Assembly (NCBI GenBank): GCA_965153455.1
Contig: OZ234493.1
Coordinates: 8,732,213 to 8,796,212, forward strand
DNA length: 64,000 nt
DNA from: Sphagnum compactum
Taxonomy: Eukaryota
Direction: 5' to 3'
The number at the start of each line of letters is the position of its first letter. Position 1 is the stretch's first letter. Made by a program: the position numbers and the translations under genes. Shown here in pieces: positions 11,301 to 43,560 of this stretch. Under the pieces are notes generated by a model that ran no database searches, had not been told where the DNA came from, and saw nothing but the letters and a program-made list of their open reading frames with translations.

Positions 11301-11346
11301 TTGAAATCTAGGGTATTGTTTTGGAAGATTTTACGGGTCTTGCAAA

Positions 11347-11706
11347 GAAAAGTTGAACACATCAAATAAGAATGTGGTAGAGTTTTGAATTATAAACTAC
11401 CTTTTTTCTGCTCATAATTTTTCTTCAATGAGTTTAGAAAAGTTGAACACATCAAATAAGAATGTGGTAGAGTTTTGAATTATAAACTGCCTTTTTTCTG
11501 TTCATAACTTTTCTTCAATGAGTTTAGAAAAGTTGAACACATCAAATAAGAATGTGGTAGAGTTTTGAATTATAAACTGCCTTTTTTCTGCTCATAATTT
11601 TTCTTCAATGAGTTTAGAAAAGTTGAACACATCAAATAAGAATGTGGTAGAGTTTTGAATTATAAACTACCTTTTTTCTGCTCATAATTTTTCTTCAATG
11701 AGTTTA
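11347..11706. repeat. Tandem repeat, 90-bp unit x4
   Basis: Unit GAAAAGTTGAACACATCAAATAAGAATGTGG...TTCAATGAGTTTA starts at 11347, 11437, 11527 and 11617; copies are nearly identical. Confidence 0.95.
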
Positions 11707-19000: not shown

Positions 19001-20571
19001 TTTTCCCTAAAATATATCCATTGTTTCCTCTCCAGTGAGCTTACTACCCCTTGATTTTAGCTATTTTTGGGAAATACATGCAGTGTCTTTGGGCCAGGCT
19101 GCCAGGAGTTGACGCACTTTTGCAATCCTTTTTCTTCACAGTCATAATAGAGGCTGAAAATGATGCTTGTGCTATGGACACAAATATGTGAGGTTGACTT
19201 TGCACAATGCTTAGAATGCTAGGATAAATCATTGGCGGCAGTTTCTGAGCTCTTTCCACATTGACATTACGAGGATTGGAGATTTTGGGCGAGCAAGGAA
19301 TTACTTGGTTGGTTCGAAGCTCAGTGTTGTGCGATTATAACTTTTCAAGAGAACCTCTGGTTCCAGTTCCAACTTTTTTTAAAATGTGAATGGTTCCCTA
19401 TTCCTCAAGTTTCAAGACTCTTGGTGTGTTAGTTTTTCAGAAAAACATTTAATAAAGTTATTAATAAAGTCACCCTCTCTTTCACCCCGTATCCACTCTG
19501 CTTTCCCAGCCCATCCCCTCTTCCAGTGATATCGGCAAAGCAATGAAATTTTATTAAATCTCAGCATGAAAATTAATGTTGAAACTCAGTATTTAATGCA
19601 CAAGGTTCTAGACTAATTATAGTAGTTGTACAGGTAAGAGCAGTGGAAATATATGTAGCAGCACTGGAGGCGCTCAGAAAAACGGAAAGAGGGGATGAAA
19701 AAGAGTTTACACCAAAATTAGTTACCAGCATTGCACAATCAATAAAAAGTGTTCATATGTGCTCACTAAATGCCTAAACTCCAATAAACAAAAGAAAACA
19801 AACTTGCATATATATATACTTGGCTAAATTTGGGACACTCAAGCTTGCTTGCATCTGTCGATGGGTGGGGGCAAGGAGGGTGGTAGCTCATTTTTCAAAT
19901 GTAACAATTACATGCCTAATTAAGTACCTAGTTACTGGTGATTAATGTAAGACTTTTTAAGGTTTAGGGTTACATAGCATATTTCTTGGCATATTCGTAT
20001 GCTGACCTTGAGTACACATGTAAAATGGGCACTCAGAGGAATGTATAACATTTTTGGTAACATTGTCCAATAATCAAGAGGCTTTGTTCAGATTAAATGA
20101 TCTTTAAATCATTGAAAAAGCTCTTTAAAAGGGTTATAACAAAAATCTGTCTTTGCCTTCAGGATTCGGCACGCACTCCAGCTTAGGTTGGCTAATTTGG
20201 GTTTTTTACACAGTCCACTCAGAAGTAGTTTAGCCCTGCAATTCAAAATTAATTTTGTTCCAAGTTCATTTCATTCTACTTCCACCATGAAAATAAGATT
20301 AAATTCAGGAAGCAACTGATATGCTGGTGCCATTGAGCTGTTACCTTCCCTAGGCCAGAGTGAATTAACAGCCACCAATGCACCAGTTGGCCGTTCTGTC
20401 CACTGGATGGGTTGCGTTTTTTCATTCGGCGCCGGATGGGGCTCATCACAGTCGATTTCTTTTTGCTGCTGACCACTGTACTTTTTTTTTTTTTTTCTTG
20501 CTCGTTTTTCCCTGGACCTGACCTCACACATAGCTACCCTGCTCACTTTTCTACCCTGTTCACTTTTCTAC

Positions 20572-20711
20572 CTAGCTACTGTACTCACCACCTACCCTAC
20601 TAACCTGGCTACTGTACTCACCACCTGCCCTACTAACCTGGCTACTGTACTCATCACCTACCCTACTAACCTAGCTACTGTACTTACCACCTACCCTACT
20701 AACCTAGCTAC
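20572..20711. repeat. Left subterminal tandem repeat of the MULE, 33-bp unit x about 4
   Basis: Unit CCTAGCTACTGTACTCACCACCTACCCTACTAA; further partial copies near 20945 and 22895. Confidence 0.85.
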
Positions 20712-23700
20712 CCTATTAATTACATACCCTACCCTAAAAACCTTACCCTAAATGCAATACCTGCATTTTGGGCCATTTCGAAAGTATGCATGTGGGGTTC
20801 AAGCTTTCTTTATACAAAGATCCTACCCTAAATGCAATACCTGCATTTTGGGCCATTTCGAAAGTACGCATGTGGGCTTTTAGCATCTTTATATGAAGAT
20901 CATACCCTAAATGCAATACTTGCATTTTGGGTCACATCACTAACCAAGCTACTGTACTAACCACCTACCCTACTAACCTAGCTACTCTATTAATTACATA
21001 CCCTACTAACTTAATCATTAGGTTTAGGGTTGAGACACATAAATTAATTGATAAGTTTTTCATAAATGTATAATAATTAATTTAAAATAAGCTAAATTTG
21101 GGGGGAAAATTTTAGGGTTTACACACATGTGAAGTAATACAATTGCATTTTATACCTTCTTCAAAAAGAATGGAAAAATTAGGTTGGAAAAATCACACAA
21201 AGGTAAAAGACATATCTTCTTTTTTGGTTTTGTACGAAATTTATTTGATTATTTCTAAAGATTAACATATTTTCTTTCAGTTAATAAATATTTATAATTA
21301 AAAACCTTTGAATTTTGGTTTCTAAATTTTTTCCTATGTTCTTTTAAATTTGGTTATTTTGCATTATATGATTTGTATAGTTTATATAGTTTTTTGGGTT
21401 TAGGGCATATATCACTAATTCTTCTTTTTGTTAGGGTTTGTATAGTTAGGGTTTATATGAAGATCCCACCCTAAATGCAATACCTGCATTTTGGGGCACA
21501 CAAAAAATACACATGTGGGGTTTAAGCATCTTTATATGAAGATCCTACCCTAAATGCAATACCTGCAATTTGGGCCACTCCGAAAGGACGCATATAGGGT
21601 TTAAGCTTCTTTATATGAAGATCCTACCCTAAATGCAATACCTACATTTTGGGGCACACAAAAATAATTAATTAATTTCAAATTAATATGCTAACAAAGG
21701 TGTGTATAGAGGTTAACGTTGTTGATTAGGAGTTCCATGATTCTTACTTCGTTTCATGAATTTGAAAAGAGGTTGTATTGTTTGTGGATCAAATAATATG
21801 ATGACAATTGTGATCAAACTTATCTTGGTGTAGGAATTTTTCATGAAAAAGCTGAACTTACAATCGATAACATGGAATAATTATCTTAAATAGTGATTTC
21901 AATAACTTATTAAAACAAAAATATACTTCAGTTAATTAATCAAATATCAAATTAATCAATCTGATTTTTGATAATTATTCATCTAAATTATTTGATAATA
22001 AATTAATTATCAGAAATATTTTATATTAAATTGGGGGGAAATTTTTGGGTTTAGATATATGTGACACAATACAATCTCGTTCTATATTTTCTTCAAAGAG
22101 ATTGAGAAAATGAGGTTGGAGTTATCACACAAATGTAATTAACAAACTTTATGTGAAAACCCAACCCTGAATGCGATACAAAGTTTGTTGAGATCAAAAA
22201 TAAACCAGCAACTATTATGAGACCTATATGCGAGTATTGCAAGAGATGCCAAAAAAAACCAGCAGCTATTATGGGAACTATATGCAGGTATTGCAACGAA
22301 TGTTATAAAAACCCAACGAATACCATGGATCGATATGCGGGTATTGCAACGAATGAAGAATGTCAGCAACTATTCAGTTGGTAAAAGTAAGTACGGGTGT
22401 AGGTATTGCAACGAAACCCCAAAATTCTAGTTCGTAAAGGTAAGTATAAGTCTGAAGTTGAAATGAAAAAACAAACCTAAATGTAATACCCACGTTTGAA
22501 AAAACCCCATCTAAATGGTTTGGATACCCTTAAGTGAAGACCTAGCCCTAAACACAATATGCATATGCAAAGTCACTTTGAAATAACCCAACCCTAAATG
22601 CAATACCTGCAATTTGGGTCACTCCTAAAGGACGCATGTAAGGTTTAAGCTTTCTTTATACGAAGATCTTACCCTAAATGCAATACCTGCATTTTGGGTC
22701 ACGTTGAAAGTACGCAAGTGGGATTTAGGCTTATTTATATGAAGATCCCACCCTAAATGCAATACCTGCATTTTGGGTCACTCTGAATAGCTACCTTACT
22801 CACTTTCCTACCCTCATAAGTATTGCACCAACCTTCATACCTTATTTATTATCCCTTACTCACATAGCTACCCTAATAACTAGTTATCCTACTGACCTAG
22901 CTATTGTACTAACCACCTACCCTACTAACCTAGCTACTCTATTAATTACATACCCTACTAACTTAACCATTAGGTTTAGGGTTGAGACACATAAATTAGT
23001 TCATAAGTTTCTCACAAATGTATAGTAATTAATCTAAAGTAGGCTAAATTTGGGGGGAAAATTTTAGGGTTTACACATATGTGAAGTAATACAATTGCAT
23101 TCTATATATTCTTCCAAAAGAGTGGAAAAATTTAAGTTGGAGAGATCACACAAAGGTAAAAGACATATCTTCTCTTTTGGTTTTGTATGAAAATTATTTG
23201 ATTGTTTTTGTAGATTAACGTATTTTTCATTATATAATTTGTATAGTTTTTTGGGTTTAGGACATATATTAGTAAGACTTTTTCTTGTTAGGGTTTGTAT
23301 AAATAGGGTTGTAATAAGGCTTATGGCAAAATATCATTTGAATTTTAAAGGTTATGCTTTATTATTTAGTGTATAAGAATTTGGTTCATATATTTCAAAA
23401 CCTAAGGTTTATACTCTAAATTTTGTTCATTGTATTGGTTTTTGATCTTTTCACTTGTTTAGATCTATACCATAATTTGAATTTCCTTTGTTTCCATATG
23501 TTCCATAGTTGCTAGGGTTTAATATTTTCTAACCCATTTTTTTACGAGTTATGATTTTTTAGGGTTGCATTTTCAATTGGGACTATAAACTTTGGTGGAA
23601 CGTTGTCATCTTTTATTCTTAAAGGTATGCATTTGTTTCTTGTTACTTCTTTTGTTTTTTTGTTTATATTTTTCACAATTCAACCTCTTTTCATTTCCTA

Positions 23701-24268
23701 CTTGTTGGATATAGAAAGGGCATCAAGTTTCATTAAATATACAAGCATAGATAAAGGTTTTATACTTTTACATGGATATTTCATATTCAATATTTCTTTG
23801 TAGTTCTTTTTTTCATACCCATATGCGAATTATGCATTGACTACCCACAACCAGTGTGGGTTTTATGGCTTAAGGCAGGTATTGCATTTTGCACCTTTCA
23901 AACAGTGTGCATTAATTATCATTATGTAGGTATTGCTACATGGGGTTTTCAGACATTATGGGTTTAAGGTACAATACGGGTATTGCATATGAGAAAATTT
24001 TCAATGATGGGAGGTTTAATAGCTCAATGTGGGTATTGCCAAAGTTTGTTTTAGTATATGGGTTCATAATGCAAGTGTTGTACGTTATGTACATTGGAAT
24101 AATAGGTTTTTTATATCATGATATGGGTGTTGTAATGGGAATTCCAAGTCACAACATTGATTTTAAAGGAGCCATGAATGTATTGCATTTTGGGTTTTTG
24201 TTCAATGATGAATGTTTAGAGAATTATAAATTCTCTTGATGCAGGAATTTGTCCTACTTCCTTCAATC

Positions 24269-26964
24269 ATGGGAAGGGTTCCAAAGTCCCATTCCATTCA
24301 TGTCCAAAACCCCACCAAGTCCCCTTTCTCAAATAAAGACTTGGTGTGGACGTTTGGGATACGCCATGGAGGGCAAAATAAAGTGAGCATTCAATTTGCT
24401 TATGTTCCGTATACTCGCATCTCGGAATTCTTGGAAGGTGAACGAGGGGATACGAGCACCCCTGTGGAATGGAGTGTTTACAAAAACTTTCCAAGCCAAA
24501 CGGATGTCAAGCATCCAACTATCAAAAACCACCTCGGGCATACATGGTAAACATTTATGGCATTAACCTTTTTAATTTATTTAATTCATATACCAAAGAT
24601 GTAATCATTTACATTTTGAAAGTTTTTTGGTCTAGGTATCAATGCGCATATGGACCAGAGGACTATCGAGAAAATTCAACCCACACTCGATCTATTAAAC
24701 GAGGATGCCTAGCGTCATTCTCAATCAAACGTCTATACACACGACCTGATGTGGCTGAGATCACAATTTATCATAAGGCCCATACACGAATTGATGGGTC
24801 ATTCGCACATGGTGAGCATGACCCAGAGTCCATTTCTCGTATGTCTCGTTATGCTCCACGCATGTCACAAGCACTGAAAGACCACATATGGGCCCAATTA
24901 AGCTTAGGTTATACCCCCAAACAAATATATGACAAGCATAAAGCAATTTGGTGAGAACGTGTGAATGCGGGTCAAAGCATGACACGAGATGATTTCATTC
25001 GGCTTCAAGACATTGCATATTTGGATCGAAAACATAAGAAAGGGAGTTGGCGTTTACACACTAACCCTGCAATTTCAATTCGGTCTTGGGCTCTCCAACA
25101 TCCGGAAGATGTGTTCTTTTTCCAAGATGTTGGTGAAATGAATGGAACTCAAGTCCCATTCACCATAGGTATTCAAACACCAACTCAATGTGAGTCCATG
25201 CTATCATATGGTCACAATGGTGCCATTTCTATGGATGCCACATTTGGCACAAATGACATGAAATTCCATCTATTCACCTTGATGGGATTTGATGATCATC
25301 GCACGGGTGTCCCTTTAGCCTGGATCATTACAGGTAGGCAAACAGTGCAAGATTTGATCGAATGGTTGAAACCATTAAAAGAGAAGATGTTATCACTCAT
25401 GCCACATTGGAAACCATCATGTTTTCTCGTTGATGATGCACCTCAAGAATTGAAGGCATTACGGTTAGTTCTATACCTAGTATCGACTTTGTGTTTATTT
25501 CCTTAAATGTTTTTTAATATCTTTCATAAAATTCTTGATTACTTCAAATGCATTTTATGTTGTACTAACCCCATCCACTCATGGATATTTTATTGCATAT
25601 GTGTCCTTATTAGGGTCGTATGGGGTATGGACAAGGTTCCCATCTACCTTTGTTGTTGGCATGTTCTCAAAGCATGGCGCCTACATGGTACTGAAAAAAT
25701 CAAAGATGTGGAAGTGCGGGGTGGAATCCTCCAAGACCTTCATGATGTGATGTACATGTCCATCAATCATGGAGAAACAATTGATGACTTCAAAGAGCGT
25801 GGGAGGGTTGCTGTGAGAGAAAGCCTTCATAAACATAGGCCTGGTGATGCGTGGACAAACTATTTCTGGACTTATTACCATCAATTTGGTAAGTGATAAT
25901 ACTTATCATGGTTCAGCATTCAAATTTATTTTGTATAATGTTATTCATCCTTGTGTATTGTGTTTATGTTTGTAGAATTATGGATGGTGGGTGTTCGAAG
26001 AGTGCCCCATTCCAACCAAGACACCCAAGTGAGCATTGAATCATATCATGGTGCGTTGAAACGTTGGCTTGCTCTTGACACAAGAGGCCTTAGAGGGCGT
26101 AGGATTGACTGGTTGGTGTGGCGATTAACAACAACCATTGCACGCCACTACATGCACACATTGGAAATGAAAAAGAGGGGTTTCATAAAAAACAAGGTTA
26201 TGGAGGCCATTATTACACGAAGTGTGGAGAAGGCAGCCCTTATTCCAATCAGCCATGTGTACCAACCAACCCTTGAGAGTGATGGAGCTTGGGCCGTACG
26301 GAGCCAACGCCTTCCCAATGTTATTTACACGGTGAAATTCCCATTCACCGAAATGTTTTGTTGCACATGCGAATGGGCATTGCGAGCGAACATGTGTAAA
26401 CACCAAATTAAGGTCATTCTCACATGCACAGACATTTCTCAAGAGGATATCATTCATTATTGTGGAACATGGTATGGATCACATCGTGGAGGGTTGGGTC
26501 ACATGTTTGCAGACCCGCAACATATTCCAGATGATATGGAGTCTAGTGATGATGACGAAGATGATCATCTTGAAGGTGATGATGGGATCATGGAATTTGA
26601 TGGGCTCATGAACATGGAGCAAAATGATCTCCCTATGGGTGCCATTGTAGGGTCTAATGAGACAATAATGTCATCAACCCCAATGGAAAGGGCTCTTGCA
26701 CAATTGGTCACTACAATGCAAGAGATCACAAATGAATGTAAAGAAGGCGATGTGACACTTTGTGAACATGCCACCTCACACATGAGAGTATTGGCATGTA
26801 ATATTCGTAACATACGCCTCACAAAGGCAAATGCAATTTCACACCCAGGATTGGTGTTACGCCGTGTAGAAGATGGATTGGGAAATAGTGTCAAACGGCT
26901 CAAAGATTGGCATGAAACAATGCTCAATCACACAAATGTACGTACTAAACGATGTCATGAATAA
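24269..26964 (+). pseudogene. MuDR/MULE transposase with SWIM zinc finger (about 789 codons), one premature stop
   Basis: Exons 24269-24546, 24636-25463, 25614-25888 and 25976-26964 join in frame (2370 nt, GT-AG). Motifs: YQCAYGPEDY..RGCLASFSIKRLY; DDE residues in ISMDATFGTN, FLVDDA and SIESYHG; CCWH (CxxH); SWIM CTCEWALRANMCKH. In-frame TGA at 24952-24954. A likely 5' UTR intron spans about 23625-24244. Confidence 0.9.
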
Positions 26965-28580
26965 ATGTTTCAATTACTAATCAAGATTGTTGCCATTAGC
27001 ACTAAGAATTTTCTTTTAGAATCAATGTTGTATGGAGGAAATCATACCCCAAATTCTTTGAACATCATGTATTCAACACACATGAAGTCCAATATGGCAC
27101 AAAGGTTATTATTGTTTCCAAATAATAAGCACAAAAAGTGTGAAATGCAAACACACAAGGATAATGATAATATTAGTGTTAGATGCAAGTATTGTAACTA
27201 GGCCCCAAAATCCCAGTTGGTAAAAGTAAGTACAAATGCAAGTATTGCAATCATGCCCCAAAATTCCAGTTGGTAAAGGTAAGTATGGATGTAGGTATTA
27301 CAATGAAACCCCAACATTCCAGTTAGTATACGTAAGTATAAGTTCGGGTATTGCAAGTTTAAATGAAAAACAAGCCTAGATGCAATACCCACACGTTAAA
27401 AAAAAACCCATCTAAATGGTTTGGGTACCCTTAAGTGAAGACCTAGCCCTATACACAATATGCAGACGCAAAGTCACCTTCAAAAAACCCTACCCTAAAT
27501 GCAATACCTGCATTTTGGGTCACACGAAAAATACGCATGTGGGGTTTAAGCCTTCTTTAAATGAAGATCCTACCCTAAATGCAATACCTGCATTTGGGGT
27601 CACTCTAAAATAATTAGTTAACCCTTACTTTTTTTCATGAATTTGAAAGAGGTTCTATTATTTGTGGAACAAATAGTACAATGACAATTGTGATCAAGCT
27701 TATTTTGGTGTAAGAAATTTTCATGAAAAAGTTGAACTTGCAATTTATAACATGGAATAATTATCTTAAATAATGATTCCAATAACTTATTAAAACAAAA
27801 ATATACTAAATTTAGTCAATCAAATATCAAATTAATTAATCTGATTAAATCCAACTTTTTATTTTCAAGTAAATAAATTTAAGCCAAATGATTGGTTAAT
27901 TATTTTAAATAAATAAATGATTATCTAATTCTTCATAATTAATCATCTAAATTATCTAAAATAATGGTCTATTAATTATTTAATTATATGACAAATTTTA
28001 TTGATAATTCATTAATTATCATAAATATTTTATATTAAATTGGGGGGAAAATTTTAGGGTTTAGACATATGTGAAACAATACAATTGCATTCTATATCTT
28101 CCTGAAAGAGATTGGGAAAATTAGGTTGGAGTTATCACACAAAGGTAAAAAAAAACCTTATGTGAAAACCCAACCCTAAATGCAATACAAAGTTTGTGAA
28201 GATCAAAAAATAAAAAGTTCAAGCTTAAATATTTTTCAAAGATGTTCATATTTTTTTTCCCCTTTTAAAGTTGTATATTCATACTAAAAACGTAAATATA
28301 AAGTCTTTAATTTAATGAGATTTTAAATTGTGTTAAAAAAAAATCAAAACACATAATAGTGGTTTAAATATTGGTCCAAATATATTGTTATTTATAAAAC
28401 CTAATACATAAATAATGATATTATGGAATTATACTGTTGATCCATTTTCAATACATATAATATTTTAGGGGTTTAGGGTTTAGGGTTGGGTTTTCACAGG
28501 TTAAGGTTGGGTAAACCCTAAAACCCTAAACCCTACAAATATTAATAGTAAATAAAATAAATCTACAGTGCATTATAGAG

Positions 28581-29328
28581 GGTTTAGGTTTAAGGTTTAG
28601 GGTTTAGGTTTAAGTTTAGGGTTTAGATTTAGGGTTTAAGGTTAAGGTTTAGGTTTAAATTTAGGGTTTAGGTTTAAGTTTAGGGTTTAGATTTAGGGTT
28701 TAAGGTTAAGGTTTAGGTTTAAATTTAGGGTTTAGGTTTAAGTTTAGGGTTTAGATTTAAGGTTTAGGGTTTAGGTTTAAGTTTAGGGTTTAGGGTTAGA
28801 TTTAGGGTTTAGGGGTTTAGGGTATAAGTTAGGGTTTAGATTTAGGGTTTAAGGTTAAGGTTTAGGTTTAGGGTTTAGGGTTTAGGTTTAGATTTAGGGT
28901 TTACGGTTTAGGGGTTTAGGGTTTAAGTTAGGGTTTAGATTTAGGGTTTAAGGTTTAGGTTTAGGTTTAAGGTTTAGGGTTTAGGTTTAGATTTAGGGTT
29001 TAGGTTTAAGGTTTAGGGTTTAAGTTAGGGTTTAGATTTAGGGTTTAAGGTTAAGGTTTAAGTTTAAGTTTAGGGTTTAGGTTTAGATTTAGGTTTTAGG
29101 GTTTAGGCGTTTAGGGTTTAAGTTAGGGTTTAGATTTAGGGTTTAAGGTTAAGGTTTAGGTTTAAGTTTAGGGTTTAGGTTTAGATTTAGGGTTTAGGTT
29201 TAAGGTTTAGGGTTTAGGTTTAGATTTAGGGTTTAGGTTTAAGGTTTAGGGTTTAAGTTAGGGTTTAGATTTAGGGTTTAAGGTTTAGGGTTTAGGTTCA
29301 GGTTTAGGGTTTAGGGTTTAGGTTTAGG
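28581..29328 (+). repeat. Interstitial degenerate telomeric array (TTTAGGG with TTTAGG, TTAAGG and TTTAGA variants)
   Basis: About 750 bp of continuous plant telomere-like repeats with recurring variant blocks; a short inverted pre-array lies at 28465-28535. Confidence 0.95.
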
Positions 29329-30699
29329 ATACTGATAATGATGCTGCAAAAGCTGCTGTTGTGGCTACAAAGAAAAGTGATTGGTCTTAAGTGCGCACCT
29401 ACCGACTAAGTACGCACACTCCTCCTAGGTTCAAGTTGCATACTTAGGCGGGAGGCTATTGTACGCATGTGGGTTTAAGCATCTTTATACGAAAATCCTA
29501 CCCTAAATGCAATACCTGCACTTTGGGTCACACAAAAAATACGCATGTGGGGTTTAAGCCTTTTTTAAATGAAGATCTTACCCTAAATGCAATACCTGCA
29601 TTTAGGGTCACTCTAAAATAACTAGTTAATTTCAAAATCATATGCTAACAAAGGTGTGTATGGAGGTTGGGGTTGTTGATTGGGAATCCATGATTGAAAT
29701 TTAGAGTTTGGGAAACCCTAAATTAATTAACAGTTTTTTTACAAATTAATAGTAAATGAAATAAATCTATGGTGCATTATAGGGGGAATTTTATATGCAA
29801 AAAAATGCAATACATATTTGCAAGATCATACTGAAATAATACATAGGTGATTGGAGGAAAGCATATGTGAAAACCCTAAACCCTAAATGCAATACTCGCA
29901 TGTAATGTCATTTCAAAAATGGTCTGGGTACCAAAATTATGTCTTTTTATATACCTAAATTAAATATTATTCTAAATTAATTTTATGACAAAATGTAAGT
30001 TTTACAATGAATGAAAAAACCAGCAACTATTATGGGACCTATATGCGGGTATTGCAAGAGAACCCAAAAAAACCAGTCGCTATTTTGGAGACTATATGCG
30101 GGTATTGCAACGAATGAAGAATGTCAACGATTATTTGTGCCCTTTATGTGGGTATTGCAAGGAATGCAAAATGCCAGCGGCTATTATGGGACTCATATGA
30201 GGGTATTGCAATGAATGGAAAAGGCCATTGCCTATTAATGCAAAATGTCTGTGGCTATTTTTTGAGGTTATATGCAGGTATTGCATATTAGAAAATGGTC
30301 TTATGGAGTTCATAATAGAAAATGATGTGGGTATTATATGTTTAAAATGTGTGGATTATTTTAAAAGTCTTCAAGTGATGTGAGTCCTATTAACTTAGAT
30401 GTAAGTATTGTATAATGTTTATTTTGATCTTTGATTTGATTCTTACATCTCAAGTACAAACAAAATTATGACAAAGAAGACATATAGGATTAACCAAATA
30501 CACATCAAACAAGTGTGAGTAGCCGATACTATTATATTAATAAAAGATGTACAAAAATGGGTGCATGGAAAATTACTAGAGAACCCAATGAAGAAAAAAC
30601 ATTGGATCACTAGAACATATCAAAGGATCAAAGTTCAAAATTGGGTAGTCCAAAAAAGAAAAGGGCTACAAAACCTTACTAATTATATAAAATGAAACC

Positions 30700-32427
30700 C
30701 TAACCCATATCAGTATCTACAATCCCATGTTTAGCTCGATATGCAACTGCTGCATTTGCAGCCTTTGCTGCATGATGAGCAGTGTAAAGATGGCGGCGTT
30801 GCATCTCAATCTGAACTGCATTTGCAACAAACTGGGCCTTTGTTTGGTCCTGAACCCTACAAACACCCAAAAATCACCAAATTAAACCGTAACACACCTT
30901 GGATCAAATACAATAAAAAAATAATAAACATTGCTTAATATTTTTTTTTACCTTCCATGAATCATTCTAGATTCATGAAAATCCAAAACATTCGATAATT
31001 GTTTTGTCCGACTTGTTTTGCTGGACTCTCGCTCCCAATTCTTCACATCCCATGCCGTCTTTAATTGTCGTGCGTATGCACAACGAGTGGATCGGATCAT
31101 CCCCTGTAAGTCATCATCCTTCTCCATTCGTACAATTGCATCTCGCGCCACACTGCCCACACCCCAGGCATCAAGGCCCAACACCTTCAACAATTGCTCT
31201 GAAGCAAATCTAACCAAAGGTGGTTTTGGGAGTGGTGGACACTGTTTTGCAAGAGTCATCAAATGATTCCACTCGCGTTCTGCTTTGGCACGAGCACGAC
31301 TAGCAGCTTTCTGATCATTTCGCCTCTGCACAGCCATCGCATCTCCCAAAATGCGAGCGTTCATCTTGCCATGGTCTTGATGCCGAGGACCTCATGCAGC
31401 AATTGAAGGCCTCCCAGGTTTTGACTTTTCTGCCACCAAGCCGTGCACCTCCTTCAAATGCTGCGTCAATAGCCATTTCGCACAATATGCGACAGTGCAA
31501 TTGTGGACTTTGCACTTCCATTTGGACCCGACCTTTGTCCATTCCTTATCCTTCCGAGCCAGATTAGGTGGACAAATAACTGCAGGTGGTTGAGAAGCTT
31601 GCTCAGTTTCCAGTTCCGGACCTAAACCCAAAAACAGAAAGTTCAATAAACAAAATGCAGGTATTGCAAAACATCAAATCACAAAATTACATATTACTTC
31701 TATAAACATGAACTGTTCTAAGGTATTGCAGTAAATTTTTTTTGACAAAAACATTTCTGCACCATCCAACAAATGGAAGGTGCAGGTGCAATTAAATTTT
31801 GAGAAATTTGTACAATTTTATTAATTTGTAATTAATCTAATGTCCTATCTTCTAATGTCCACGAATTCTACAGTAATCTATACCAATGCTACCCTTTTGT
31901 TTCAATTGTGATAGAGCACAATTATGCTCACCAGTTTCCCGATCTAATGCAGCAATATTATCCTTAGCAACAATTTGCTGGGCACCTCCCGCATCTGATG
32001 TGGTGACAATTTCCTAGGCACCTCCCGCATCTGATGTGGTGACAATTTCCTAGGCACCTCCCGCATCTGATGTGGTGACAATTTGCTGGGCACCTCCCGC
32101 ATCTGATGTGGTGACAATTTCCTGGGCACCTCCCGCATCTGATGTGGTGACAATTTCCTGAGCACCTCCCGCATCTGATGTGGTGACAATTTCCTGGGCA
32201 CCTCCCGCATCTAATGTGGTGACAATTTCCTGGGCACCTCCCGCATTTGATGTGATGACAATTTCCTGGGCACCTCCCGCATCTGATGTGGTGACAATTT
32301 CCTGGGCACCTCCCGCATTTGATGTGATGACAATTTTTTGGGCACCTCCCGCATCTGATGTGGTGACAATTTCCTAGGCACCTCCCGCATCTCCTGCATC
32401 GCTTTTCTTTACTCTCCTCCTACCCAT
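30700..32427 (-). pseudogene. MULE accessory gene: 12-aa tandem repeat, C2H2 zinc finger and uncharacterised helical C-terminus (about 440 codons), four premature stops
   Basis: Exons 32427-31932, 31621-30952 and 30856-30700 join in frame via GT-AG (1323 nt): MGRRRVKKSDAG(DAGGAQEIVTTS)n..ALDRETG|PELETEQ..WKCKVHNCTVAYCAKWLLTQHLKEVH (C-x4-C-x12-H-x4-H)..MIHGR|VQDQTKAQ..GIVDTDMG*. Stops: TAG at 32374-6, 32050-2 and 32014-6; TGA at 31392-4. Confidence 0.8.
31976..32392. repeat. Coding minisatellite, 36-bp unit x about 11.5
   Basis: GGCACCTCCCGCATCTGATGTGGTGACAATTTCCTG recurs every 36 bp from 31981 to 32377. Confidence 0.97.
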
Positions 32428-32579
32428 TATAACCTCCAACCCTAAACCAGTAGTTATTACCAATTGTTAATTCTAATGAACAAAAGCACAAGCAACAACA
32501 AAACAAAAAAAATAAATCGCCACTAGCAGCAAGAAAAAAGAAAAAAAAAGCGTTGCAACTTTGAGCTTTAGAAAATTGC

Positions 32580-32890
32580 AGCTTTGAGCTCGGAGCTTTA
32601 AACGTTGCAGCTTTGAGCTTTGAGGGTTTAGGGTTTAAACCCTAAACCCTAAACCTGCAGCGCTGCAGCTCTGAGCTCCACGAGTTAGGAGCAGCGCAGC
32701 AGCTCCGAGCTCCACGAGCTTGGAGCAACTCCAAGCTCTGAGCTCCACGAGCTTGGAGCTCCAGCACAGCTCCGAGCTCCACGAGCTTGGAGCTCTAGCG
32801 CAGCTCCGAGCTCCACGAGCTTGGAACTGTGCTGCTCCGAGCTCCGAGCTCCACGAGCTGGGAGCTGCAACTCCGATCTCCCAGCTCCAC
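32580..32890. repeat. GC-rich GAGCTC-based satellite, block 1
   Basis: Repeated GCTCCGAGCTCCACGAGCTTGGAGCT modules. Confidence 0.9.
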
Positions 32891-33371
32891 GAAAATTCTT
32901 GGAAAAGCTGATTCCACAAAGCTTTCATAACAAAAGAAATCCAAAGAACAACGATGAGCAATTGCTTTTTCCTTACCTGGATACTGCAGGCAGATTCAGG
33001 GCAAACGAAGCTTGTGTCCAAGTCCTTACCAAAACTGCGCCCAAAATCTTTCCTGCAAAACAGAATTAGTTTTCAGGGAGCCTCCTCTTCAAAAGTCTAA
33101 TTCTCCCCCTCTCCCCCCCCTCCAACACCTCTCTGAGATTCAACAGAAATGCAATTCCACGAAATTCCATCACCAGACACTTGGAATGGAAAAAAAATCA
33201 CGAAGACCAAAATGCTATCAGTGCTGATGCTTTTCCAAGCCAACACGACGACAGCTTCATTCTTGCTACCGAAGCCTGTTCTACCGTCACTCGTAAAACT
33301 CCGCACACAACAGCAAAAAAATGAAAAAAGAGAACAGATTTCTCGCTTTTCACAAACGTTGTTCCTTCTCT

Positions 33372-33375
<4 letters not shown>

Positions 33376-33425
<50 letters not shown>
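33376..33425. repeat. (GA)n microsatellite
   Basis: About 25 uninterrupted GA units. Confidence 0.95.
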
Positions 33426-33427
<2 letters not shown>

Positions 33428-33809
33428 ACAAAGTTCTCCTTCCGGCGCCTACTATAATGTATCGATCTCCCTACACCTCCTAACACAAGTCCGAATTTTC
33501 CATCAGATATCAATCCGCAATGAAGAAGAACATCCCGGGCCTGATAAAAGTGGAAAACAAGAAAAAACAGAACTCGCTAGCCAATTGTCATCCCTAGTAC
33601 CTGCTGGTGTCTCGAAGCTGATAAAAGACAAAGCAGAGAGAATTGCCTTTCCAAAACTGCCAGCCAAGAAAACCAAAAGAAACTGAAAACCCTAAACCCA
33701 ACAAACGAGCCGTAAATTGGTCCACTTCTCTCTCAGTCAGATTCCCGCAAATTCTTGTCTCCAAAAATAAATTTATAATAGAAAATTTTCGTCGCGAAAG
33801 CTCCAAACA

Positions 33810-34216
33810 CCAGCGCTCGAGCTCGGAGCTGCAGCTCCAAGCTCCGAGCTCCACGAGCTGGGAGCTGCGTTGCAACTCCGAGCTCCACGAGCTTGGAGCC
33901 AATTGTCATCCCTAGTACCTGCTGGTGTCTCGGAGCTGCAGCTCCCAGCTCCGAGCTGCAGCTCCAAGCTCCGAGCTCCACGAGCTGGGAGCTGCGCTGC
34001 AACTCCGAGCTCCACGAGCTTGGAGCTCCAGCGCAACTCCGAGCTCCACGAGCTGGGAGCGTGGAGCGTGGAGCTTGGAGCTCCAGCAGAGCTTGGAGCT
34101 GCAGCGTGGAGCTCCGAGCTCCACGAGCTTGGAACGTGGAGCTCGGAGCTGCTCCAATCTCGTGGAGCTCGGAGCTGCGCTGCTCCGAGCTCCAAGCTCC
34201 ACGAGCTTGGAGCTCC
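33810..34216. repeat. GC-rich GAGCTC-based satellite, block 2
   Basis: Same modules as block 1, in both orientations (CCACGAG and CTCGTGG). Confidence 0.9.
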
Positions 34217-35044
34217 TCTTCAAGCAAACATTGTTGGACAAAGATGGAAATTGACTGAAACCAAAGAGTGCAGAACATACATGAGGACACAGTACCGTCG
34301 ATAAGTTCGGCACCTAGGAGATGTTTATTGCTGAAGCTCGGTACCGCTGATATCTTCTTCTGGCAGGATAGAAGCGTTGAAGAGGAGGAAAGAAACCAGC
34401 AATATAATATTATTACATGAGATTCTTACGAGCACCGAAGTCTGCCGCGAGGGGGAAGGAAATCCGTAAGGGCGAATGCTCAACTACAACTGTCTTCCTT
34501 TCCTTTACGATCAAGTGGAAGTACGCAACAACAACAGCAACAGCAACGGCGCCATATATAATAAGCAATCCAGTAATGAACGAGAGGCCGCGTGCAGAGC
34601 GCCTATAAGCAATGTTCTCAAAAACTGTACAGCTGCAACAACACCAGCAGCTCCTCAAACACAGCGTTGCAGCAAAACCACGAAAATCTACTCACATGTA
34701 AGTGAGCAGGAAGATGTACAAACCAATCGGCAACTCTAGGAAAAGGAAGCCTTCACACCAAATTGCACGCACGCGCTGCTGCTGATCTCCGAGAACCATA
34801 AACCTGAAGACGAGATATCGGAGAAAACTTGCACAATAGTCACCAAAACTACCGAAAATACAGACACCGAGAAAGAGAAAAGACACAGAAAACCGCACCG
34901 AGAGAGACAGAGAGACAGAGACAGAGAGGGAAATATGCAGTGAAAAGCAGAGGGTGAAAGAAGCAAGCGACCAGAGAGGAGACCAGAACTCAAAACGATT
35001 TTTAAAAAAATTCTACGCGAAAAAAAAAGGAGTTACAAGTTCGG

Positions 35045-35565
35045 GCAGCTCCGAGCTCCACGAGCTTGGAGCGTGGAGCTCGGAGCTGCTCCAATCTCGT
35101 GGAGCTCGAAGCTGCGCTGCTCCGAGCTCCGAGCTCCACGAGCTTGGAGCTCCAGCGCAGCTCCGAGCTCCACGAGCTTGGAGCTTGGAGCTTGGAGCTC
35201 CCAACTCGTGGAGCTCGGAGCTGTAGAGCTTGGAGCTGCAGCTCCCAGCTCGTGGAGCTCGGAACTGTAGAGCTTGGAGCTGCAGCTCCCAGCTCGTGGA
35301 GCTCGGAGCTGCAGCTCCGATCTCCAAGCTCCACGAGCTTGAAGCTGCAGAGCTTGGAGCTACAGCTCCCAGCTCGTGGAGCTCGGAGCTGCAGCTCCGA
35401 TCTCCAAGCTCCACGAGATCGGAGCTGCGCTGCTCCGAGCTCTGAGCTCCACGAGCTTGGAGCTCCAGCGCAGCTCCGAGCTCCGAGCTCCACGAACTTG
35501 GAGCTCCAGCGCAGCTCCGAGCTCCAAGCTCCACGAGCTTGGAGCTGCAGCTCCGAGCTCCACGA
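35045..35565. repeat. GC-rich GAGCTC-based satellite, block 3
   Basis: Same modules in mixed orientation. Followed at 35640-35790 by GGTGCTCCCG repeats and at 35810-35880 by a purine-rich GGTAGGAGG subterminal tract. Confidence 0.9.
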
Positions 35566-38156
35566 TGCAAAATAAAAAAGAAGAAGGGAAAAAAGCTTAC
35601 CTTGAAGCTCTGGCGCTCCTGCTTCAGGAAAAAAGCTCCAGCTCTGGCGCTCCCGCTCTGGCTGTGGTGCTCCCGGTCTGGCTTCGTCACTCCCGCTCTG
35701 CCTGTGGTGCTCCCGCGATGGTGCTCCCATTCTCGCTGTGGTGCTCCCGCGATGGTGCTCCTGCTCTCGCTGTGGTGCTCTGGCGATGGCGATTGGAGGT
35801 AAGACGTTGGAGGTAGGTAGGAGGGGGGAGGTAGGAGGGGGTAGGTAGGAGGTAGGAGGGGGGAGGAAGGTAGGTAGGGGAGAAATGTTTTGGGGCAGAG
35901 TAGAGGCGGGAGAAAAAAAAAATATTTGGGCAGTCCGGATGTGGTTTTGGTTCATCCCCAAAACAGGTTGAACGGGCTCATCCTCAACTGGTGCATTGGT
36001 GGCTGCTAATTCACTCAAGCCACCTTCCCTATATCTTTTGTTAGATACGGTCTTGCAAATATAAGATGAGCAACAACCAAGTGTGGATTTCAATGTTCAA
36101 CCAGGCATTACTGTGTCAACACTGAATTCAGTTTTTTGACAGCTTCATGGAACATTTCTTATTTTAGTGGTTACTGGTTTAAATTTGGCATACAAGGTAG
36201 ACCCATTATGCAATGAGCTGTTTGTTGGGACTTAAGCAACTTGCAAAATTGGACAAGATGCTTTAGGGATGAATGTGATGTGAGCAACTACATGAAAAAA
36301 TATGTTCCATCTCTAGAGATTTCAGATTACTATAATTCTTTTGTGTAGAGTAAGAATGGAGTGTGTGTTCTGGGCTACACAGCTTTACCATCCATAATTT
36401 TGAGTGTCTTGAAACAGACACTTCAATCAAAGAATTGAAATTTGGTTCTGAGAGAACTCCAACAATGTAGAGATCATAAAGGAAAATTGTGATACAGCTA
36501 AAAAAGCAAGTCAAAGTAGATCATTGTTTGTATTAGCTAACAAAATCATAGAGGTTGCTGAGCATATCAATCATAATCTGTTTTCTGGCAGAAGGAATGC
36601 AACTCAATTTCAAGGCAAGATCACAATTTGGGTAAATTCTGGCAGTTTAATAAATTCCCAATGACTATTTTACAACGCCTAGAAATATAATAATTCTGTT
36701 TTTGGCAACATCAAGTATCCCCTGGTGATGAATCAAGAATCTAAAACTGTTTGCAATCTGGTTGGGGAAATGTAGGTGAAAAGCATGTGGACAAATTGCT
36801 ACAAAATGATGGAAAAGTCCTCATAAACTCGAGTATCCCAAAATTTTGAACTTTTTTTGTTGGACACTTGTGGATTATGTTACTTTGCAATTGATTATTG
36901 AGGTATTTAAATGCACTCATAGGACATGTTCCCCTAGGTATGAATATTTGAATTGGCAATGGCAACCGATTTTGTCATTTAAGACAACATGGAAACTTGC
37001 TAGAATGACAGGTATGGACCTTTCCATGTAGAGGATAGCACTCTACATTTAAATGAAATTTACATGTAAATTTCAGCATTTAACGGGTTGGCGGTTTGTA
37101 GTTCATATGGACCTTAGAAAGCTTATTTCTTTCTTTCTCTAGAAAACATTTTATCTAATACTTGAGGTTTTAAGACCTAAACTTCAGGATAGCAAGAATT
37201 TACATTGAAAAACAGCCCATATTCAAGTTGTCTGACGTTTAGGGTTAAGGACAGATGTTCAAGGGGAGGCAGTAATGAGGAAGTTTGTGCGATAGGATAG
37301 GTATAAAAAAGTAGCTTTATAAGAACCCTTCATGTGTTTCAAATTGTAGGTGGGTTTGACACATTTGCATGAAACAAATTTAGTAATGGGTGCATTAAAC
37401 TGATTCATTTTCAAGTAGCAAAATCCAGATTTGCAGAGCTTTACACTTTATATGTTTTGTTACTTTTCAATTTTTACAGATAGTTTAAGCATTACGGTTT
37501 ACTATAATTGTTAACTGGAGAAAACCTATAGTTTACAAATTGGCTTTAGGGTTAAGATAGAAAATGCCATTCATATTACAGTTTGCAAAAGTATAGAAGA
37601 GCACGTAACATACATTGTTATTTGTTGTTCCCTACACTCCATGCTGAGCTAGAACTACTAATTTGTTCATTATTCTCCATGAAAGTAATGAAAAATTATA
37701 CAATTTCTCCTTCTCACTTGGTATTAGCAGATTACCACCCAACTTCAACTTCCAGAGCAAACAAGTACAAATAGCCAGCTACGGTAGTTAAATTTCAAGC
37801 ACTCTGGCACATGTGAAAGATAAGTGGAGCATTTGGTCACAACATGGGGAATAGAATAGTTATGATACAAGTTTGATATCATAACTATTTATCGATTGAT
37901 AGTGCCATATTCTTCAGGTTCCTCTGTTGATATTGCCTTTCCATTATGGTGTTAAACCCTCACAGTTTGTGATATTGTCTTCCCATTATGGTATTTTACA
38001 TTCAAAATTCAGTCATTTTACAACGGTAATTTGAATGCATTGTGGAAACTTTGAATGCATTTGTGTAGGGAAAAAGATTGTTCTCTTTCACTGATTAAAA
38101 TCGAATCCAACTGTAAAGTCGCTACTCATGCTAAACAATAGAAATTGTAATTTCAA

Positions 38157-40918: not shown

Positions 40919-43034
40919 AATGGTTGGTCAAATTGAAGCAATTCCCGACTATTAAGGATTTAATTTGAAACAATATTTTTCAGTCCCTTGGAGGCACTTT
41001 TGTGTTTCCAAGGAGACAACTTGTAAGGTCAAAGGTGATCGATCATTCATTTGAAGGAAAACCTGCAACTTGTACAACAGACAAGTTTCAATTAAGAGTA
41101 GTAAACAAATGACATGGTGCTACTCCAAACATTGCTTGCTTCAAGCAAACGTTCAGTCTCAGAGTTTTTACGGGATTTCTGCAACACTTGTTTTGTTAGG
41201 TGTGACCATCATGCAAATCATGGCAAATAAAGTCTTCCTTTTGAAGCAGGTACTTCATTTTACTTTGTCCCCTTTCTTTCATTTTTCTACTTTGTAAGAT
41301 CTTCCATTGGCTGCTGTAGTTCTGGAAAGCCCACAGCTTACGATGCTGAACACCAGTCACATGAGTTTCTGTTAGTCTGCTTGCATGATGGTACATACCT
41401 AATGCAGCCTGCTTCGCGGCCACAACAACTTTGTCTAGTACTGTGGCAACTTCCACACTAATTATATGTACCTTATATGAATGATGTATGCATATACATT
41501 TTTTATCCCCTAGATTAATTCCACCTTTTTTGTTTGGGGTGATGGTGAATGGTGAAACAAAAAAATGCCATGTTCATTTGAAATAATAATGCAATTCATC
41601 TTCACGTAAGTACATTGTACAACAAAACTGCTAATTTGAAATTAAGAAAATTGGTACATCATTGAACAAGGGTCTCTGTTTTTTAGTTGTGTACGTGTTT
41701 TTTATTTAGTTCACATGATTTTGAAGCTAATGTTAACATAAACAAAACTAAAGTGATGAAAGGAAAATGAACTTGACATGGACCATTGATTATGTTATAA
41801 CAATCACATTGAAGTTATTCACTAGGGGATGAGATCACCCAGTTTTGGCATAATATGGGATCAAATTCATAATAGGGTGAGAATTTTACAACACAAAATA
41901 TATTTGCACCCTTATTTTGGATCCTTGTGCATGTGCAAAGGAGACATGATGCAAAATCTTTATGCAATGATCCTTCTTCATTTTTTTTTGTGTGAAGTAA
42001 ATGTTTGCAAATGAATAGGTGTAGAGAAAGAAGGGAGTGAGAGATTTATGAAAGAAGTATGGTTTGTAAAATTTTTGAGAGATTCAAAGATCATTCTCAC
42101 TTGTGACAACTATAGCAAGAGCATGGAGCAAGCGGTGGAGGAAGAGTGTCATGCAAGAGCAAGAAGTTGCAATGCACAAGGGTTTTATTGTTCTAAAGGT
42201 GATGATTAAATTTGTAACATTCAAGTTGTCCTATCTTCAAAAACTTGGAGATGGTGTTAGTAGAAAATCAAGAGGACAATGGCAAATAAAAATTTCAACT
42301 ATCATTCATTAGATGTGAGCTTGTGGTCAACTTTCATGTTAATGCCTATGCTACGGTTTATTTTCATGTTCTTCTTGAAGCTCTTCAAACTTGTTCAAAA
42401 GTTGACTTATACATGGTCAATACAATCAATTCACAATGGACATCCTTTGAACCTCAAATTTGCATCAAACCTAATCCATGAATCCTAAAATGTGATTGAC
42501 CACAACAATAATCATGCAATTCAACTTTCGAGTAAGTTGTTATTTTCACAAATACCTTAGTTCTAAAACACATCTTGCCACACTTGGCCATGACCCCCTC
42601 TAGCTTTGGAGTCTAAATTGAGTAAACAAAGCATGTTTTAAAGTTGTAAGCAAAAACATGCATTATAATGTATTGGAAATTGTTCAAATAGATCATATTT
42701 TCATACCATTGCAATGCATGGCATTGCTAGGTAATCCTAAATGAGTATCTCCTTAGAGTTGATTCAAACATTGAATCATATAAGGATTTTCACTTGGATT
42801 TGGAAATTCCTAGGTAGAATGGAACTTTATTTCATAAGTTGCAGCTTTATATGACTTTTTGGAACTACATATGAACTTTGTAAATTTTCCCAAAAGTTCA
42901 TCAAATTGGGAGATGATTTTGTATAGGTTTGTCATGAATTTGAAATGACTAAAAGAAACCCCATTTGTGCATCAAACTTGGTGATATTTTTCTATAGGTT
43001 TATGTTTGGTCTTGGAACCTCATAATTGGAACAT

Positions 43035-43560
43035 TTCTCAAGTTTGTGTGAAACTTGGCACCTTCGATGTTGTAATTTAAAGTTTGTCTTTGACTTGGTA
43101 GTTCAATTTGAACCTCTTTTAAGTCTTGTGACATTTAACACTTTTGATGTTGTAATGTAAGGTTTGTCCTTGACTTGGGCAGTTCAATTTTAACCTCTTT
43201 CAAGTCCATGTGATACTTGGCACTTCTAATGTTACAATTTAAGGTACATCTTTGACTTGGCAATTCAATTTGAACTTCTTTCAAGTTTGTGTGTAACTTG
43301 GCACCTTTAATGTTGTAATATAGGTTTTCCCTTAACTTAGCAACTCAATTTGAGCCTCTTTAAAGTCTATGTGATATTTGGCACCCTATTGTTGCAATTT
43401 AGGGTTTGTCCTTGACTTGGCAATTCAATTTGAACCTCTTTCAAATTTGTGTGATATTTGGCACCTTTGATGTTGGAATTTAGGGTTTATCTTTAATTTG
43501 GCACCTTTCATGTCTTTGACTTGGCAACTCATTTTGAACTTCTTTCAACTCAATGTGATA
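43035..43560. repeat. Degenerate tandem repeat, about 80-bp unit x about 6
   Basis: TTGGCACC..GATGTTGTAATTTA.GGTTTGTC.TTGACTTGG..TTCAATTTGAACCTCTTT recurs near 43056, 43137, 43217, 43298, 43378 and 43458. Confidence 0.85.

Follow-up and report, generated by a model that had tools for sequence, protein, structure and literature searches.

Arrays of a short element-specific word in the non-coding DNA of a Sphagnum Mutator-like element: a candidate protein-binding regulatory sequence

Results

The element and its two genes

We examined a 64,000-nucleotide stretch of the genome of the peat moss Sphagnum compactum (assembly GCA_965153455.1, contig OZ234493.1, positions 8,732,213 to 8,796,212 of the forward strand), referred to here as the window and numbered from its first letter. 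It contains a Mutator-like element (MULE) of 15,669 bp, delimited at 20353-36021, with two convergent genes that encode a transposase and an accessory protein. The non-coding DNA of the element carries arrays of a short word, GTATTGCA, for which an earlier reading of the sequence (the original prediction) had proposed a role as a protein-binding site. The borders of the element, with its terminal inverted repeats (TIRs) and target-site duplication (TSD), and its two genes are as follows.

20343..20352, no strand: left TSD copy, ACCTTCCCTA, 10 bp, read directly; the identical 10-mer lies at 36022-36031
20353..20389, plus strand: left TIR, 37 nt, the inverted counterpart of 35985-36021; the TIR core is found in 27 of 80 loci
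24243..26964, plus strand: transposase gene with MULE domain, intron at 24546-24634 and in-frame stop at 24952-24954; open frames span 24230-26964
30691..32430, minus strand: accessory gene, convergent with the transposase gene; in-frame TGA at 31392-31394 and three TAG stops
35985..36021, minus strand: right TIR, 37 nt, with CCTACC repeats just inside (35815-35878)
36022..36031, no strand: right TSD copy, ACCTTCCCTA

The presence of terminal inverted repeats, the 10-bp TSD, which lies in the 9-11 bp range of MULEs, and the domain content of the transposase all place the element in this superfamily, and similar TSDs are readable at two related loci (L019 and L021). Related loci were collected from metagenome contigs by a search with the last 341 residues of the transposase; 588 candidate stretches were obtained, 208 of them encode a relative, and the best 80 of these 208 were used. 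Homology to the window begins sharply at 20350-20353 (23 related loci aligned) and stops as sharply at 36021-36022 (12 related loci aligned). For counts inside and outside elements we used 25 TIR-bounded relatives together with the window, 26 sequences in all, and set the borders from the TIRs. At L021 two family TIRs stand back to back about 20 bp apart (324-406), one of them from a neighbouring inverted copy, which suggests adjacent or nested insertions within the same family.

The transposase matches Pfam PF10551 on 24955-25506 (E = 6.2e-08, 33.4 bits, cutoff 27.6), and its relatives carry PF10551 and PF21056. A SWIM-like CxC...CxH pattern, CCTCEWALRANMCKH, is invariant in our alignment (A1), and no Pfam SWIM match was found for the 341-residue open reading frame (ORF) at E ≤ 0.01. 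A C...C...H...H block is conserved in the N-terminus. Moss and plant metatranscriptomes include contigs that lie on the transposase region with at least 92% likeness, and RNA-library contigs cover 23326-23943. One moss metatranscriptome contig of 1292 nt skips 24546-24634, an 89-nt segment that has GT..AG borders in the window; this is hard to explain by contaminating DNA, and some member of the family is therefore transcribed and spliced. Several RNA-library contigs begin at an acceptor-like site, 24242/24243, and a splice from about 23944 to 24243 is possible. The four runs consist of assembled contigs that carry no depth, strand or transcription start, and the parts they leave uncovered are not evidence of silence.

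The first exon of the accessory gene encodes a basic N-terminus and twelve 12-residue tandem repeats (36 bp x 11.8 at 31970-32392, peptide EIVTTSDAGGAQ), three units of which contain the TAG stops. The next exon encodes a C-x4-C-x12-H-x4-H finger, and the protein also has a helical tail. Intact homologous ORFs of 227-250 residues exist elsewhere, two of them under Sphagnum names, and the named relatives are from Sphagnum balticum and S. jensenii, at 77-80% identity. In P0189, a relative from Sphagnum balticum, other peptide repeats occupy this position, and the tandem-repeat region thus turns over quickly. No Pfam family was matched by the window protein and two locus ORFs at E up to 10, nor by eight accessory relatives at E up to 0.1, DUF1985 and DUF287 included; one relative has a sub-threshold zf-C2H2 match (E = 0.0063, 17.3 bits, cutoff 25.2). 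The best score in the ESM Atlas is 0.88, to unnamed clusters. A profile search of 1.84 billion representatives gave 398 matches at E ≤ 0.001, and among the 150 listed all are at most 232 residues long; we read these as probable fragments of the accessory family.

Because both the transposase and the accessory gene carry in-frame stops, the window copy lacks intact coding capacity and is probably a defective member of an autonomous MULE family.

Arrays of GTATTGCA within the element

There are 34 GTATTGCA sites on the two strands of the window and all lie within 20753-31730, compared with an expectation of 2.53 (standard deviation 1.46, largest 6) in dinucleotide-preserving shuffles. Of the 37 occurrences of the 7-mer GTATTGC, 36 fall in 20754-31723 and the remaining one is at 7555. 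A longer 16-mer, ACCCTAAATGCAATAC, is present in 15 exact copies, or 19 with up to two mismatches, where 0.06 are expected. By region, 17 GTATTGCA sites fall in 20353-24242, none in the transposase gene, 15 in 26965-30690 and two in the accessory gene. Most are organised in arrays of three kinds of unit (types A, B and C), as defined by GTATTGCA and ACCCTAAATGCAATAC matches, Tandem Repeats Finder (TRF) and self-alignment.

20745..20936, minus strand: type-A array, three units of 79-80 bp; GTATTGCA lies in a 29-nt near-palindrome and is followed by TTTAGGGT
21468..21658, minus strand: type-A array, three units; TRF period 79, 2.7 copies
22195..22410, plus strand: type-B array of 54-bp units (...TATGCGGGTATTGCAACGAATG...) with the beginning of a type-C unit and four sites on the plus strand; the type-B units proper span 22195-22355 (TRF)
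22591..22781, minus strand: type-A array, three units, from GTATTGCA/ACCCTAAATGCAATAC matches and TRF
23879..24187, plus strand: array in the transposase 5' leader or first intron, three exact GTATTGCA and two GTATTGC, irregularly spaced at about 50-200 bp
27183..27388, plus strand: type-C array of 53-bp units directly 3' of the transposase stop; units span 27183-27356 (TRF), and one minus-strand site ends the array at 27381
27492..27603, minus strand: type-A array, two units, from GTATTGCA/ACCCTAAATGCAATAC matches and self-alignment blocks
30005..30285, plus strand: type-B array of 51-bp units with five plus-strand sites, just 3' of the accessory gene; units span 30005-30227

Much of this had been anticipated. 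The original prediction spoke of more than 30 motif copies concentrated in the MULE and rare outside it, and of an approximately 80-bp unit occurring about 13 times in five named clusters; we find all 34 sites inside the element and none elsewhere in the window, and 13 of the 15 exact ACCCTAAATGCAATAC copies fall in those clusters (3+3+3+2+2) with a TRF period of 79-80 bp. Copies in the opposite orientation were likewise found where they had been placed, in the 51-54-bp units and at 23879-24187, as were the two sites proposed for an intron of the minus-strand accessory gene, at 31661 and 31723 in a stretch that reads as intron. The claim that the motif is often fused to a telobox-like sequence holds in part. 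GTATTGCA is followed directly by TTTAGGGT, one telomere-repeat unit, at 15 of the 34 window sites, but the canonical telobox, AAACCCTA, is a different word: next to the motif, TTTAGGGT continues with A or G (GGGTAA, GGGTAG, GGGTGG), which does not give TTAGGGTTT.

The number of sites is inflated in this copy by segmental duplication. The blocks at 20.7-22.8 kb repeat those at 27.2-30.2 kb in direct orientation (20645-23310 compared with 27183-30285), such that the 5' region duplicates blocks that normally lie 3' of the transposase, and a segment of about 1.95 kb is tandemly duplicated. The 34 sites exceed the 2-17 held by each of the 25 TIR-bounded relatives within the part covered. In run X15 (type unrecorded, probably DNA) contigs connect 20419 with 22799 and 28180 with 29871, which points to other copies without one of the duplicates and without the satellite insert described below.

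Specificity of the word in the family

Across the 26 sequences there are 278 GTATTGCA in 299,838 bp inside elements and three in 152,503 bp outside family copies; with the window excluded the counts are 244 in 284,168 bp and three in 104,173 bp. The word is thus a marker of the family, with an approximately 30- to 47-fold separation from flanking DNA. We also took every 8-mer that occurs 60 times or more inside elements and ranked these words by inside/outside ratio in 24 sequences, two near-duplicates (L012 and L027) having been dropped. GGTATTGC (191 inside, two outside) ranks first and GTATTGCA (261 inside, three outside) second, so that the k-mer comparison suggested with the original prediction returns the motif words as the two most discriminating 8-mers; they are followed by overlapping words and by the one-base variants GTATTACA and GTATTGTA.

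The conserved word is longer than the 8-mer with which the sites were selected. In the 261 instances, which fall into 39 flank-context clusters, the six positions before GTATTGCA played no part in site selection and carry 0.63-1.16 bits each, reading A-T-G-Y-R-G, compared with mostly 0.05-0.4 bits at positions farther out. The extended core is therefore about 14 nt, ATGYRG followed by GTATTGCA, or ATGYRGGTATTGCA. The Y-R step at positions -3/-2 reads CA in 75, TA in 70, TG in 58 and CG in 33 instances (236 of 261), which is the pattern of a decaying methylated CpG, and the ancestral word was thus probably ATGCGGGTATTGCA; decay of this type is an indirect sign of past methylation only. Spacings between sites cluster at 50-54, 79-82 and 100-106 bp. 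TTTAGGG follows GTATTGCA at 36 of the 261 family sites, and telomere-type words are enriched 2.1-3.2-fold inside elements (AAACCCTA itself 2.1-fold).

A deeper comparison is available in six loci of a sister subfamily (L064, L065, L068, L069, L075 and L080), in which transposase identity is 47-53% and family-specific DNA homology to the window is confined to the transposase coding parts, with the addition of a telomere-like satellite at L080. In L068, L075 and L080 together, GGTATTGC is the 8-mer with the highest observed/expected ratio (29.6x), and there are 28 GTATTGCA, which lie in different units.

Placement of the sites

The position and orientation of the sites were measured relative to the transposase stop in 62 loci and the window, and both are conserved with respect to the genes. 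Just 5' of the transposase frame, the bin from -3000 to -2750 has 36 plus-strand sites in 44 loci. The coding sequence is nearly free of sites, with a sole cluster of 11 minus-strand sites near -1250. The densest bin is +250 to +500 after the stop (120 plus-strand sites in 59 loci), and the next one has 78 minus-strand sites. A second block, minus then plus, lies 2.75-3.75 kb downstream of the stop beside the 3' end of the accessory gene, whose introns also contain a few sites.

The ends of the element are occupied by a different repeat. In the 700 nt inward of the TIRs there are five GTATTGCA in 17 left ends (three of them from the window) and none in 11 right ends, and the site nearest the right end of the element is 4.3 kb away. 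Read inward, CCTACC is present 75 times in the 17 left ends and 47 times in the 11 right ends, and its reverse, GGTAGG, is absent from both. In the window the left block is

20534..20732, plus strand: left subterminal CCTACC-type repeats of 17- and 33-bp units (TRF)

with related blocks at 20939-21010 and 22857-22962 and at the right end (35815-35878). Repeats of this type also lie at the ends of L019, L021, L028 and others. CCTACC is thus near both ends and mirror-symmetric, and GTATTGCA is neither. The CCTACC subterminal repeats are likely to be transposase-binding sites distinct from the GTATTGCA arrays, and since they have the usual geometry of such sites, the GTATTGCA arrays would do something else, most simply gene regulation.

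Conservation between copies

When other copies are compared with the window, identity is 0.938 at the core and 0.857 for all non-coding DNA, although this comparison is biased: only sites at which the window itself fits the consensus enter it. We therefore used pairwise identity among the other copies (74 loci, with six near-duplicates dropped), which is 0.899 at the core, 0.768 at positions -6 to -1 and 0.836 in the flanks. Core 8-mers exceed nearby windows (0.899 vs 0.848, p = 2e-05), and at the five core positions with A or T (T, A, T, T, A) identity is 0.969, vs 0.894 at A/T positions up to 40 nt away (Mann-Whitney p = 1.8e-12). In family non-coding DNA as a whole, A/T positions stand at 0.904 and G/C positions at 0.751, and the core G/C positions appear to erode at the general rate of an apparently methylation-scarred family. 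The original prediction had staked itself on the motif being more conserved across copies than neighbouring bases; it is, by a modest margin (0.899 against 0.836 in the flanks). Retention of the word across contexts and subfamilies is a stronger argument than its conservation between copies.

Other repeats of this copy

Two further features of the window copy lie between and beside the arrays.

28181..29870, no strand: copy-specific insert, with a 750-bp degenerate telomere-like satellite (AGGGTTT)n at 28579-29328 (TRF)
32650..35570, both orientations: GC-rich satellites (GAGCTCC/GAGCTTGGAGC) upstream of the accessory gene, 48-54% GC, with no GTATTGCA

The insert also carries a two-unit type-A array (29461-29611) and four GTATTGCA sites, at 29508, 29588, 29806 and 28181, the last of which straddles its left edge; a fifth, at 29888, is just beyond the right edge. 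The interval 28501-29000 is aligned by almost no related locus and 29001-29500 in part only, and L080 carries a similar telomere-like satellite. The GC-rich satellites are nearly private to the window, which accounts for 44 of the 55 GAGCTCCA words found in a count over 24 elements. Other copies have, in the region upstream of the accessory gene, arrays of AAGAAGGC (L019 14407-14917, L022 12938-13383, L028 16271-17094), a word with 104 instances inside elements and one outside. It stands in either orientation, frequently in short inverted pairs, and only two instances lie in the window; it may be a second cis element. Outside the element, tandem arrays are seen at 11346-11706 (about 90-bp units), and longer, more diverged ones at 43024-43503, 44169-45229 and 46941-47338.

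Discussion

We consider it probable, at roughly 0.6, that the GTATTGCA arrays are a cis-acting, sequence-specific protein-binding word that an autonomous MuDR-like MULE family carries in the regulatory parts of its non-coding DNA. Flanking and lying between the two convergent genes, the arrays would recruit an element-encoded protein, which in turn would control the transcription or chromatin state of the element, either by self-activation or by anti-silencing. They would not be the sequences of the ends at which the transposase cuts, a role that the TIRs and CCTACC repeats fit, and tandem duplication of the short units (51-54, 79-82 and 100-106 bp) would serve to multiply the sites. We infer the binding, the identity of the binder and the effect of binding from the DNA. 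The earlier argument that one core kept across unrelated repeat units marks a protein-binding site is borne out by the 39 contexts, by the rank of the word among 8-mers and by its retention in the sister subfamily, and holds less firmly for conservation, where the margin over neighbouring bases is modest; taken together the binding-site reading is well supported, if indirectly.

Several observations weigh against it. By identity to the window the word is only eighth of 120 recurrent 8-mers, the core is equalled or exceeded in conservation by 28.6% of nearby 8-nt windows, its G/C positions decay like other G/C positions (0.781 vs 0.772, p = 0.47), and positions -3 to -1 are among the most variable. 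There is no GTATTGCA in the 3.6 kb from the accessory gene start to the right end, and thus not every gene flank has the motif. Most of the examined copies are dead, with frames broken in all 15 accessory loci that were read through. No DNA-binding fold could be assigned to either of the encoded proteins: profile searches of PDB sequences gave nothing below E = 0.3 for the transposase or for the accessory protein, and both AlphaFold2 models have a mean predicted local distance difference test score (pLDDT) below 46, at 45.5 for the accessory exon (A3, 26 sequences) and 43.6 for a transposase N-terminus (A5, 10 sequences), whose zinc-finger part is below 50.

The arrays could instead be neutral internal satellites, spread by slippage or unequal exchange, with the core as a remnant of one ancestral unit that no protein reads. 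Array copy number does vary (0 to 17 sites per locus), the high count of the window is due in part to segmental duplication, other words of the units (CATGTGGG and ATGAAGAT) are conserved as well as the core, and A/T-rich words decay more slowly family-wide. However, a remnant should neither be the most element-specific word nor keep six flanking positions across 39 contexts, the word outlasts all alignable non-coding similarity in the sister subfamily, and the core A/T positions surpass the neighbouring A/T positions in conservation (p = 1.8e-12). We regard this account as unlikely. A site for a host transcription or chromatin factor, serving as a promoter or enhancer module and perhaps acting with a TRB-type telomere-repeat binder, would suit the array in the transposase 5' leader and the telomere unit that adjoins 15 of 34 window sites and 36 of 261 family sites; in Arabidopsis, teloboxes recruit TRB and Polycomb repressive complex 2 (PRC2), and PMD-C proteins nearby oppose them (bioRxiv 10.1101/2024.09.27.615353). 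However, the three instances in 152.5 kb of host flanks are at or below the composition expectation (about six, by our own calculation); the telomere-type words are only 2.1-3.2-fold enriched in the element, read GGGTAR or GGGTGG and not the canonical telobox where they adjoin the site, and are limited as an extension to the type-A lineage and some sister-subfamily units. This makes a host-factor site quite unlikely.

The word might instead be bound by the transposase as a requirement in cis for transposition, in synapsis or cleavage, as are the subterminal repeats of En/Spm or Ac. MULE transposases have been described with an N-terminal WRKY-GCM1-type zinc finger (PMC1702500), to which the C...C...H...H pattern of the window transposase may correspond, and the first eight positions of the ancestral word (consensus ATGYRGGT) equal the published GCM-domain site, ATGCGGGT (PMC2172107). 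There are 39 instances of ATGCGGGT inside elements and one outside. The relatives compared are very distant and the resemblance is a lead only. Moreover, the word is missing from the TIRs and nearly so from the 700 nt beside either end, its arrays are asymmetric about the element, with the nearest site 4.3 kb from the right end, and the end-symmetric CCTACC holds the subterminal position, so that a role of this kind appears very unlikely. Finally, the 29-nt near-palindrome of the type-A units could make a DNA or RNA hairpin the functional unit, for instance as a small-RNA precursor or structure-specific signal. All five type-A units folded do form hairpins (-6.2 to -9.8 kcal/mol, z -3.2 to -5.6), but none of the three type-B and type-C units folded passes the usual threshold against shuffled sequence (z +0.54, +0.06 and -1.74), the words of the second palindrome arm are among the least conserved in the units (0.76-0.82), and no Rfam family matches 20000-36500. 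A hairpin function is, on these grounds, highly improbable.

As binder of the arrays, the accessory protein, the element-encoded zinc-finger protein favoured by the original prediction, is a possible but tentative choice, and the transposase is a candidate that we hold with more doubt; a host factor would be an improbable one. By our own residue assignment the base-reading positions of the accessory finger are A, W, L and K/Q, within a nearly invariant AKWLL, and hydrophobic A, W and L would be unusual in a finger that reads bases; a 14-nt site is also long for a single finger. In the sister subfamily the core is kept while the finger of the transposase (about 47-57% identity) and the exon for the accessory finger (38%) have both diverged, and since both proteins persist beside the same core, co-variation does not discriminate between them. 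The transposase stays a candidate here because in AtMu1c the transposase suffices to bind and activate the copies of its own family (bioRxiv 10.64898/2026.08.24.746577).

The closest parallel is with VANDAL21 (Hiun) and its accessory protein VANC21, which binds arrays of YAGTATTAY in the non-coding DNA of the element (PMC5735166). Both are Mutator-superfamily elements with an accessory gene, and in both a short word (9 nt in VANDAL21) is enriched in the non-coding DNA of the element and rare elsewhere, in dense arrays of one orientation whose tandem repeats gain and lose units between copies, with arrays upstream of the transposase and in accessory-gene introns; the variable region of the accessory protein consists of tandem peptide repeats in each case, and both words contain GTATT. 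The moss arrays thus have the enriched, dense motif in tandem repeats of non-coding DNA that marks VANC-type systems. VANC proteins, however, are shown with DUF1985/DUF287 domains (PMC5735166), whereas the moss accessory protein has one C2H2-pattern finger and no Pfam family; with DUF1985 and DUF287 absent, the system is an analogue of VANC and not a member. The moss element also differs in having clear 37-nt TIRs, in arrays that are in both orientations overall though of one orientation each, and in its host, which is a moss and not a eudicot. The targets of VANC proteins are described as differing between related families (PMC5735166), whereas the moss word is stable across a deep subfamily split. 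Binding and hypomethylation, as in VANDAL21, would be predictions for the moss system. AtMu1c offers a second likeness, in that a MULE-encoded protein binds the DNA of its own family sequence-specifically, with hypomethylation and transcription as the outcome (bioRxiv 10.64898/2026.08.24.746577), although AtMu1c binding peaks at the TIRs and the element has no accessory gene, whereas the moss word is absent from the TIRs and nearly so from the subterminal regions. A further possible likeness is to PMD-C and the M1M-M2M motifs, where a transposon-derived protein opposing silencing reads a motif next to a telomere-type, PRC2-recruiting element (bioRxiv 10.1101/2024.09.27.615353). That system consists of host genes and proteins in Arabidopsis, and we compare it by description and not by motif sequence; the telomere-type extension in the moss is not a canonical telobox and adjoins only part of the sites. 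A parallel with motif/telobox modules that oppose Polycomb is thus speculative.

The general plan of the moss element resembles that of maize MuDR, in which two convergent genes, for a transposase and an accessory protein, lie between TIRs and insertion produces a 9-11-bp target duplication. The TIRs of MuDR are about 215 bp and hold promoters and a transposase site, and we know of no internal motif arrays of this kind in MuDR. Many copies of a short word in both orientations, read by an element-encoded regulator, are also familiar from the 12-bp TnpA motifs of En/Spm and the hexamers of Ac. In En/Spm and Ac the words stand no more than a few hundred bp from either end, whereas the moss GTATTGCA arrays are internal and the subterminal position is held by CCTACC repeats. 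The link of En/Spm to regulation has been discussed (bioRxiv 10.64898/2026.08.24.746577). Full-text literature searches with the word in four spellings found no paper containing it, and we found none on Sphagnum Mutator elements in the searchable library.

A more specific version of the regulatory reading, and an unlikely one, is that this moss MULE family evolved its own self-activation or anti-silencing system independently of VANC proteins in eudicots, in which an element protein acting on ATGCGGGTATTGCA arrays would keep silencing marks off. Such a protein would combine a basic N-terminus with fast-changing tandem peptide repeats and a single C2H2 finger, and could act together with the WRKY-GCM1 finger of the transposase and, where the telomere unit adjoins (about half of the sites), in competition with a host telomere-repeat binder that recruits Polycomb. 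Were this so, such modules would be an ancient and recurrent strategy of Mutator elements across land plants.

Sequence-specific anti-silencing by transposon proteins has been documented for VANDAL, Spm and AtMu1 elements in Arabidopsis. A bryophyte MULE that has the same cis architecture and an unrelated accessory protein bears on whether this is a general Mutator strategy or a eudicot speciality, and the 14-nt word, with its near-invariant TATT and decaying CpG, provides a concrete target for binding and methylation work in peat mosses.

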